Virus record (IMG/VR): IMGVR_UViG_2531839454_000019
Source of the DNA: a virus
Lineage: Duplodnaviria; Heunggongvirae; Uroviricota; Caudoviricetes
Reading direction: 5' to 3' (one strand)
DNA length: 9,725 nt
Made by a program: the position numbers and the translations under genes. Within the stretch, counting starts at the first letter, position 1. Each line of letters starts with the position of its first letter. The notes beneath the pieces are model-generated. The model made no database searches. It saw only the letters and a list, made by a program, of their open reading frames with translations, and was not told where the DNA came from. Shown piece by piece: positions 7,194 to 8,153 of the stretch.

Positions 7194-8153
7194 TTAATTT
7201 ACCATCAGTCTTAGAGCCAGTTCGTCCGGATAGGGATCGAAGTAATTCTGTGTAAGCAAGTAATCATTAGGATACTCACCCAGATAATGCTTCAGCAGAG
7301 TCAACGGCGCAAGAAGAGGTAATGTGCCAGAACGATAGTTAAGTATAACCTCGCTCAACTCTTTACGCTGGCGTGTACTTAAGTAGTTACTAAAATACCC
7401 CTGTATATGCATCAGCACATTCGTGTGATTTTTACGTGATGCAGGTTTTCTGAGAATCGCCATCAGCTTATCACGATACACCTCAAAGTATGATTCAAGG
7501 TCCGCCCACTCGTGTATTGCAGCCACAAATGGTCCCATATCTTTATAGCCTGCCTGACTATGCGCCAACAACTGAAGCTTATAACGACTATGAAAAGCTA
7601 ATAACTCTCTTCTTGATAATTTCTCCTTGTAAAGGTGATTGAGCTCATGCAAAGCAAAAACTCTTTCAACAAAATTCTCACGAAGCACTGGATCATGTAA
7701 TCGCCCATCCTCTTCAACCGGTAGCCAGGAAAACTTTTCCATCAAAGTGCTCGTAAATAGTCCCACTCCATCTTTACGACCTCGATTACCATTTTCATCA
7801 TAGACACGCACGCGCTCCATGCCACAGCTGGGAGATTTAGCACAAACCACAAACCCCGATACATCCTTTAATTTGTCCATATAAGAACGACTAAACTCTG
7901 TCATTCTCTCTGTCACATCCTCATTCTGGTCGTGGCTGAAACACATCCGTATATTTCCTTGCATCGAGCGCACAAGACGTAGAGCAGGACGCGGAACTGG
8001 CAGCCCTATAGCCATTTCCGGACATACTGGTCTGAATGTTACCCATTCCACTAATTTGTCCATTAAAAAGTCAGCTCTTTTGTGACCACCATCAAAACGA
8101 ACAGCAGAACCGGCCAAACAACCGCTGATTCCAATCACAGGTTTTTTTATCAT
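7194..8153 (-). CDS. DUF523 (TudS-like [4Fe-4S] desulfidase) - DUF1722 (YbgA-like) fusion protein; RudS-like putative tRNA 4-thiouridine desulfidase
   Basis: 319-aa ORF, ATG 8153 with GGGGGAG upstream. N-terminus MIKKPVIGISGCLAGSAVRFDGG with Cys12, Cys44 (PVCPE), Cys104 and Cys110 (VVCAKSPSCG), matching the three-Cys cluster-ligand pattern recalled for TudS. C-terminal half is a YbgA/DUF1722-like helical region. Domain calls from motif memory, not HMM search. Confidence 0.75.
   Translation of the reverse strand: MIKKPVIGISGCLAGSAVRFDGGHKRADFLMDKLVEWVTFRPVCPEMAIGLPVPRPALRLVRSMQGNIRMCFSHDQNEDVTERMTEFSRSYMDKLKDVSGFVVCAKSPSCGMERVRVYDENGNRGRKDGVGLFTSTLMEKFSWLPVEEDGRLHDPVLRENFVERVFALHELNHLYKEKLSRRELLAFHSRYKLQLLAHSQAGYKDMGPFVAAIHEWADLESYFEVYRDKLMAILRKPASRKNHTNVLMHIQGYFSNYLSTRQRKELSEVILNYRSGTLPLLAPLTLLKHYLGEYPNDYLLTQNYFDPYPDELALRLMVN

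Follow-up and report, generated by a model that had tools for sequence, protein, structure and literature searches.

Why should a phage of Escherichia coli carry, between its late antiterminator gene Q and its lysis genes, a gene for an enzyme predicted to remove sulfur from tRNA? The question is raised by a 9,725-nucleotide stretch of DNA from a Caudoviricetes virus (IMG/VR record IMGVR_UViG_2531839454_000019), the whole of which we call the window. The gene, rudS, lies on the minus strand at 7194..8153, and an earlier note, made from the letters of the window, had proposed that its 319-residue product is a fusion of a TudS-type (DUF523) domain to a DUF1722 domain, resembling the 4-thiouridine (s4U) desulfidase RudS. 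Our answer is that this is a coliphage RudS carried in a three-gene cargo cassette between Q and the holin gene S, where it would serve as a tRNA s4U desulfidase and be read through, together with the lysis genes, by Q-modified RNA polymerase. We put the probability of this reading at roughly 0.8.

Domains and fold of the rudS product

The gene at 7194..8153 is real and encodes RudS, as judged by the architecture, fold and catalytic residues of its product, a predicted tRNA s4U desulfidase; the evidence comes from the open reading frame (ORF), Pfam matches, orthology, residue conservation, a structure model and substitution rates. The ORF has exactly the boundaries proposed for it. It starts with an ATG that has a Shine-Dalgarno-like sequence, AAGGGGGAG, just 5' of it–a good ribosome-binding site–and its length of 319 codons is typical among RudS homologs. 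In Pfam searches the protein matched PF04463 (2-thiouracil desulfurase/DUF523) at residues 7–149 (E = 4.5e-40; 137 bits against a cut-off of 34.7) and PF08349 (DUF1722) at residues 192–309, covering profile positions 1–117 of 117 (E = 5.8e-41). Both matches are well over the curated cut-offs, and the NCBIfam YbgA model aligns with residues 160–315. The N-terminal motif GISGCLAG, which the earlier note had picked out, is at residues 8–15.

The RudS-like fold is also borne out by structure prediction. An AlphaFold2 (AF2) model, made from an alignment of 69 homologs from which the sequence of Escherichia phage 1H12 was left out, has a mean predicted local distance difference test score (pLDDT) of 95.6 and a predicted TM-score (pTM) of 0.92. 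The only significant matches to this model among PDB structures were five entries for TudS (probability 1.00; target-normalised TM-score 0.70–0.75), and in the same search no solved structure covered the DUF1722 half. By profile comparison, the protein matches TudS (6z92) with E = 4.6e-16, and the SPSCG motifs of the two proteins are aligned.

Cluster ligands and catalytic residues

The earlier note named Cys12, Cys44 and Cys104 as the ligands of the iron-sulfur cluster; the first two stand, but the third does not. We examined residue conservation in 70 homologs with 35–93% identity, selected from the 4133 relatives that an exhaustive HMMER search detected at E ≤ 1e-10. Cys12 and Cys44 are each conserved in 69 of the 70, and position 110 is Cys in 68. 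Position 104, on the other hand, is Lys in 34 homologs and Cys in only 11, and the window protein carries a Cys there by chance; "Cys104" is the number of the ligand in TudS. In the profile alignment to 6z92, residues S101-P-S103-C104-G of TudS correspond to S107-P-S109-C110-G of the window protein. Because position 110 is conserved and aligned with Cys104 of TudS, and position 104 is not conserved, we take the third ligand to be Cys110, so that Cys12, Cys44 and Cys110 are the predicted ligands of a [4Fe-4S] cluster. The same three residues are given as the ligands in the phage and Salmonella RudS proteins (PMC11417400).

The rest of the catalytic set is conserved to a similar degree, with Glu46 and Arg55 present in all 70 homologs, Ser107 in 69 and Ser109 in 65. 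Residues C12, C44, E46, R55, S107, S109 and C110 of the window protein correspond to C17, C49, E51, R60, S111, S113 and C114 of RudS_KT, the Pseudomonas putida enzyme, and mutation of each of these abolished the activity of RudS_KT (PMC11417400). The tRNA-contact residues of RudS_KT–the R24/N26/G27 loop, and S243/R244 in the DUF1722 domain–correspond to R19, D21, G22, S239 and R240 of the window protein when they are placed by their residue offset from the cysteines, rather than by alignment. At these offset-derived positions the alignment columns have R in 69/70 homologs, D or N in 70/70, G in 66/70, T or S in 56/70 and R in 41/70.

Relatives of known activity

The earlier note expected the gene to represent a new kind of late-region cargo, and in this it was mistaken. 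The window protein is identical at 298 of 319 residues (93%) to gp66 of Escherichia phage 1H12 (H3V29_gp66, YP_009909557.1; genome NC_049947), and under the name RudS_vir this protein has already been assayed. Jamontas et al. (Nucleic Acids Res 2024; PMC11417400) had the gene synthesised and overexpressed it in E. coli BL21(DE3), where it lowered tRNA s4U; on overexpression all the RudS variants in that study cut tRNA s4U, by 4.7- to 26-fold overall. RudS_vir likewise has 319 residues with Cys12, Cys44 and Cys110, and none of the 21 substitutions between it and the window protein is at a catalytic position. The cassette of 1H12 is also the same as that in the window: Q (gp64), the lipocalin Blc (gp65, on the opposite strand), RudS (gp66), a 243-residue regulator (gp67) and holin (gp68). 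Unlike the 1H12 gene, the window copy is in a Qin-like prophage and its neighboring regulator gene is frameshifted.

Two chromosomal enzymes, RudS_ST (STM1389 or ORF319, in Salmonella pathogenicity island 2) and RudS_KT (PP_0741), have the same TudS-DUF1722 architecture and catalytic set as the window protein, and RudS_ST also shares its length and Cys numbering. Both are s4U erasers in vivo, and RudS_KT in vitro as well; their genes are tied to MerR/LitR regulators and light-response genes (PMC11417400), whereas the window gene is in a phage late region. TudS itself (DUF523Vcz; PDB 6z92-6z96, 6zw9) resembles the N-terminal domain of the window protein in fold and active site, including the CPE and SPSCG motifs, but it has no DUF1722 domain. 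Its substrates are free thiouracil and 4-thio-UMP, and it leaves tRNA s4U unchanged (PMC11417400). With a published ortholog and a conserved active site, the window enzyme very probably converts s4U to uridine in tRNA.

The enzyme class and its carriage by this group of phages are thus already published, and to that extent our main claim adds little. What is new is its context in a fixed cargo cassette between Q and S, with blc and a YdeO-like regulator gene, and its prevalence in E. coli, which contradicts a statement in the literature. The text of PMC11417400 uses the word phage twice and the word prophage not at all, and prophages, Q and the late operon are not among its subjects; the literature that we searched held nothing relevant about a prophage or late-operon context of RudS or DUF1722.

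A cargo cassette between Q and the holin gene

As the earlier note proposed, rudS is found on the late-gene strand, with Q and a tR'-like terminator to one side of it and the holin gene to the other. Upstream of it is the late antiterminator gene Q (QuuD/Q21 family) at 9026..9403 on the minus strand, with a match to PF06530 (E = 2.5e-51). Its ATG is the RefSeq start of a 378-bp homolog; the mechanical ORF extends to a TTG at 9418 (9026..9418). Q distantly matches the Q21 structures 6p18/6jnx (E = 1.9e-8), and its homologs are labeled "antiterminator Q family protein" in E. coli genomes. Directly after Q, at 8897..8927 on the same strand, is a tR'-like intrinsic terminator with a 9-bp stem (AGCCAGCC..GGCTGG) followed by a U7 run. 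The hairpin, at 8927-8904, has a folding energy of –14.9 kcal/mol (z = –3.9; none of 200 shuffled sequences was as stable), and it is the sole terminator-like site in the region 5600-9500. On the other side of the slot, the first lysis gene and downstream edge is the S21-type holin gene (EssD; 5709..5924, minus strand; PF04971, E = 1.4e-35).

The slot between these genes contains blc, rudS and a regulator gene. The first of them, at 8346..8870, is on the plus strand and so antisense to late transcription; it codes for a Blc-like outer-membrane lipocalin lipoprotein (PF08212, E = 7e-44; 316 bits with the NCBIfam Blc subfamily model, against a cut-off of 267). Between the divergent blc and rudS genes is a 192-bp spacer (8154..8345) in which the blc promoter must be located, possibly along with one for rudS. 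After rudS there is an AT-rich spacer of 342 bp, and then the last gene of the cassette, at 6112..6851 on the minus strand, for a YdeO/GadX-like AraC-family regulator with HTH_18/HTH_AraC matches. This gene is split by a –1 frameshift; the intact 243-residue phage regulator matches YdeO over its full length with E = 6.5e-37, which is under the family cut-off. A candidate terminator after the regulator gene (~6020-6062) folds weakly (–8.1 kcal/mol, z = –0.8), and we did not count it as a feature.

The frameshift itself is in a run of Ts at 6720-6726, which by alignment is T7 in the window and T8 in phages IdasGreatGrand and 1H12. Of 80 IMG/VR viral contigs, 43 have T8, 6 have T7, 2 have T6 and 1 has T9. 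This variation could be recurrent slippage that acts as an on/off switch, or it could be homopolymer sequencing error.

The cassette is low in GC and compositionally foreign. rudS and blc have GC contents of 0.43–0.44, and the regulator gene and the spacer upstream of it only 0.32, compared to 0.48–0.53 for the Q, S, R and terminase genes. In sister phages whose Q is a close relative (mEp332, ev243 and the DLP12 type), the porin gene nmpC/ompD stands exactly where the window has blc, rudS and the regulator gene. Homology to these nmpC-type phages extends as far as the stop codon of Q, and sets in again at the ribosome-binding site of S, about 14 nt ahead of its ATG. In lambdoid phages, the interval between Q and the holin gene is the classic place for exchangeable cargo. 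In Shiga toxin (Stx) phages, stx1/stx2 and tRNA genes occupy the same position, between Q/pR'/tR' and holin, and stx is transcribed from pR' under the control of Q (PMC6266700). The cargo in the window is instead a tRNA de-modifying enzyme, a lipocalin and a regulator, and Q-dependent expression, which has been demonstrated for stx, is predicted here from gene order.

Distribution and selection

The earlier note suggested a survey of lambdoid prophages for homologs in this slot, and we surveyed 5426 complete E. coli genomes, the 80 IMG/VR viral contigs mentioned above, and 50,697 deposited phage genomes. The viral contigs were scanned with a single protein as query, which reaches close relatives only, because a diverse alignment had no stretch conserved enough for searching. 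rudS is common in E. coli: 1136 of the 5426 genomes have a match to it, 1064 have at least 80% of the gene, and 980 have at least 80% of the whole segment from Q to holin. Comparison of the last two numbers indicates that about nine-tenths of rudS carriers share this arrangement. In E. coli the gene is almost always on a Qin/DLP12-like prophage, and about one-fifth of complete genomes have it. The full order of genes–Q(+), blc(–), rudS(+), regulator(+), holin(+), lysozyme(+), with signs relative to late transcription–is present in 70 of the 80 viral contigs, and the remaining ones are truncated or do not have the regulator gene. The tR'-like hairpin is exactly conserved in 74 of the 80, and is kept in IdasGreatGrand and 1H12. 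Among the deposited phage genomes, on the other hand, full-length RudS is present in only 12 of 50,697, all of which are E. coli lambdoid siphophages; in these 12 isolated phages too, rudS is placed between Q and holin.

The gene is maintained by purifying selection. Between the window and the 1H12 lineage, the ratio of nonsynonymous to synonymous substitution rates (dN/dS) is 0.11 for rudS (dS = 0.29), compared to 0.06 for blc and 0.25 for the regulator gene, and an intact ORF of 319 codons with every catalytic residue is present in 79 of the 80 viral contigs; it is from these two results that we conclude that rudS is under selection.

E. coli has been said to lack RudS (PMC11417400 and a 2026 review, PMC13602947). 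This statement is true for strains K-12 and BL21, but it is untrue for the species. In BL21 (NZ_CP053601.1, locus 2808-5397), Q and blc have been kept but only the first 147 bp of rudS remain; the gene was truncated by IS3 and the lysis genes were lost. BL21, the host in which the RudS proteins were assayed in 2024, thus has a remnant of the same cassette and is naturally null for rudS. In one other E. coli strain, rudS is interrupted by IS1.

Predicted expression with the late genes

The blc, rudS and YdeO-like regulator cassette fills the variable Q-holin slot of Qin/DLP12-like lambdoid prophages in E. coli. In the mechanism that we propose, polymerase modified by Q would, on induction, pass the tR'-like terminator and cross rudS before it reached the lysis genes, so that RudS and the lysis proteins would be made together. 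The DUF1722 domain would hold the tRNA, and the TudS domain, with its cluster (Cys12, Cys44, Cys110) and its set of Glu46, Arg55, Ser107 and Ser109, would turn s4U at position 8 or 9 of the tRNA back into uridine. A physiological pay-off might be, for example, less crosslinking of tRNA, and less growth delay, after exposure to ultraviolet A (UVA) light.

The architecture of the locus makes Q-driven late expression of rudS likely, because the gene points the same way as the late genes and comes after both Q and the one good terminator, with no further terminator to shield it. A late promoter close to S and shared among these phages is improbable, since we found no block conserved just upstream of S between phages with different cargo. 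During induction, Q-driven transcription would collide with antisense expression of blc, a gene on which purifying selection is strong.

Several observations weigh against the proposed reading. The only candidate for the late promoter pR' that we could read from the sequence, TTGCTG-17 nt-TAACAT at 8985..9013 on the minus strand, just past the Q stop codon, is weak: its hexamers agree with the consensus at 7 of 12 positions, which is under the threshold of our scan, and its location is not confident, although the exact string is present in 44 of the 80 viral contigs. Comparison with the nmpC-type phages failed to map pR', because homology collapses past the Q stop into short islands that contain no well-spaced pair of hexamers in common; the longest island is a block of 9 nt, ATATAACAG (8951-8943). 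The spacer between rudS and blc, with 90% identity and no gaps between the two cassette lineages, is conserved above the synonymous rate of its flanking genes (dS = 0.20–0.29), which fits the presence of independent promoters, though the blc promoter alone could explain it. The activity data behind the s4U claim come from the overexpressed 1H12 allele and not from the window allele at its native level. Moreover, RudS_vir was less active on tRNA than RudS_ST at a similar, good level of protein, and among the RudS proteins tested it gave the shortest lag on free 4-thiouracil (PMC11417400), so tRNA may not be its sole substrate.

Alternative explanations

The same spacer leads to the most substantial alternative, which is that rudS is a moron gene for lysogenic conversion, expressed mainly in the uninduced lysogen from its own promoter between rudS and blc, which the YdeO-like regulator or a stress response may control. 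The host would gain by having less s4U and a shorter near-UV growth delay, and late read-through would be incidental. Much of what we found suits this idea, from the low GC content of the cassette and the presence of other cargo (nmpC) in the same slot of sister phages to the facts that the antisense neighbor blc must have its own promoter and that the cassette has its own regulator. The conservation of the spacer without indels fits it as well, the closest chromosomal relatives are host stress-operon genes, and an eraser that was present before irradiation is what reduced the UVA growth delay in PMC11417400. Set against these points, there is no convincing sigma-70 promoter upstream of rudS. 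The best match there has 9 of 12 consensus positions, sites are no more numerous than in shuffled sequence, and within the spacer itself the scan gave only a weak match, TTGAGA-16-GATGAT at 8322..8295; nor does any terminator isolate rudS from late transcription coming from upstream. We regard lysogenic conversion as a serious possibility, at a little under even odds, and it is compatible with the reading in which Q-modified polymerase transcribes rudS along with the lysis genes.

The assay results for RudS_vir described above also suggest an enzyme that, like TudS, acts chiefly on free thiolated bases or nucleotides (4-thiouracil, or 4-thio-UMP from tRNA turnover) in pyrimidine salvage or detoxification during phage growth, and the TudS domain and its active site are indeed fully conserved. 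But no RudS variant matched TudS in supporting growth on 4-thiouracil, and RudS_vir was able to lower tRNA s4U (PMC11417400). Purifying selection extends along the whole protein, with the DUF1722 domain kept, and the offset-matched tRNA-contact positions (R19-F-D-G22 and S239-R240) are conserved, which makes free bases quite unlikely as the chief substrate. It is far less probable again that rudS is neutral or decaying passenger DNA with no function in the prophage. One could point to the frameshifted regulator gene in the window, and to the rudS genes broken by IS3 in BL21 and by IS1 in another strain, but the data on selection and integrity largely refute the idea: dN/dS is 0.11, the ORF and its catalytic residues are intact in all but one of the 80 viral contigs, and carriers of the gene include isolated phages that form plaques as well as about one in five complete E. 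coli genomes.

We also considered a role in defense or anti-defense, but found no support for it; PADLOC, which covers known systems only, gave no match for RudS, the regulator, Blc or the DUF1327 protein.

Chromosomal relatives

Outside E. coli, the closest relatives of the window protein are about 76% identical and are chromosomal proteins of Citrobacter, Serratia, Klebsiella and Pectobacterium. The rudS gene of Citrobacter braakii is the last of seven consecutive genes on the same strand, and the six before it code for an amine oxidase, a DUF1365 protein, a cyclopropane-fatty-acid (CFA) synthase-like protein, a DUF2878 protein, a 175-residue protein with no Pfam match, and a DUF3833 protein. 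RudS genes are often in light-responsive operons (PMC11417400), of which this cluster may be one. We considered whether blc and rudS were captured together from a chromosomal light-response operon, but rejected this for the Citrobacter cluster, as the two genes for proteins of ~175 residues upstream of Citrobacter rudS are unlike the Blc of the window (BLASTP E > 1).

In Salmonella enterica serovar Derby and related contigs, a RudS that is 74% identical has its gene beside ttcA, whose product functions in tRNA 2-thiocytidine synthesis. The vicinity also contains part of an integrase gene, a phage gene of the DUF1367 family, a Usp gene and a porin gene, and the region looks like a prophage remnant. 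Among close homologs there are also two odd fusions, one a 403-residue E. coli protein in which RudS is joined to a GGDEF domain (PF00990) and the other a 500-residue DUF3833-RudS protein. Each is from a single contig, and may be an artefact of assembly or gene calling.

Other features of the window

Downstream of the holin gene the lysis region continues on the minus strand, as judged from Pfam matches and from RefSeq names in a 97.6%-identical E. coli prophage, with a DUF1327 (ydfR-like) gene at 5393-5704, a lysozyme gene at 4863-5396 and an Rz spanin gene at 4369-4866. Nested in Rz, in another frame, is an ORF at 4419-4715 (minus strand) with a hydrophobic N-terminal stretch that ends in LTSC and resembles a lipoprotein signal, as is usual for the Rz1 o-spanin. 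Beyond Rz, before the small terminase gene, is a low-GC island of ~2 kb (2250-4368; GC 0.36), which in a related prophage is annotated with gnsB, ynfN, ymcF and cspI. At gathering score, the only Rfam match was a full-length cspA thermoregulator (RF01766; 107 bits) at 3747-4163 on the minus strand, overlapping a cspI-like cold-shock gene at 3793-4008; there was none near Q or rudS, and no tRNA genes were found.

Implications for phage and host

What would the phage, or its host, gain from an s4U eraser that would be made with the lysis proteins? That rudS gives a benefit when the prophage is induced by UV is a coherent idea, which we put forward as a hypothesis. Its weakness is one of timing, because an eraser made only late cannot undo crosslinks between s4U8 and C13 that have already formed. 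In the published experiment on UVA protection, overexpressed RudS_KT shortened the growth delay from ~105 to ~60 min (PMC11417400), and RudS was present before irradiation, which favors, or at least leaves room for, a role in lysogenic conversion.

A stronger version is that RudS is a true late-phase function, with Q-driven expression removing s4U8 from the tRNAs of the host in the course of lytic growth. The synthesis of late proteins would then become insensitive to near-UV crosslinking of tRNA and to the ensuing stringent response when the prophage is induced in sunlight, or tRNA would become a poorer target for some tRNA-dependent system of the host. We consider this version unlikely, but if it is true, late-phase s4U8 stripping would be a change to the host epitranscriptome at a time set by the virus, and about one-fifth of E. 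coli strains would carry it. The location of rudS in the Q-controlled slot that holds Shiga toxin in Stx phages leads to a testable prediction, that prophage induction lowers tRNA s4U. More generally, E. coli strains may vary in near-UV growth delay, in s4U level and in the s4U-dependent stability of tRNA for a reason that is prophage-borne.

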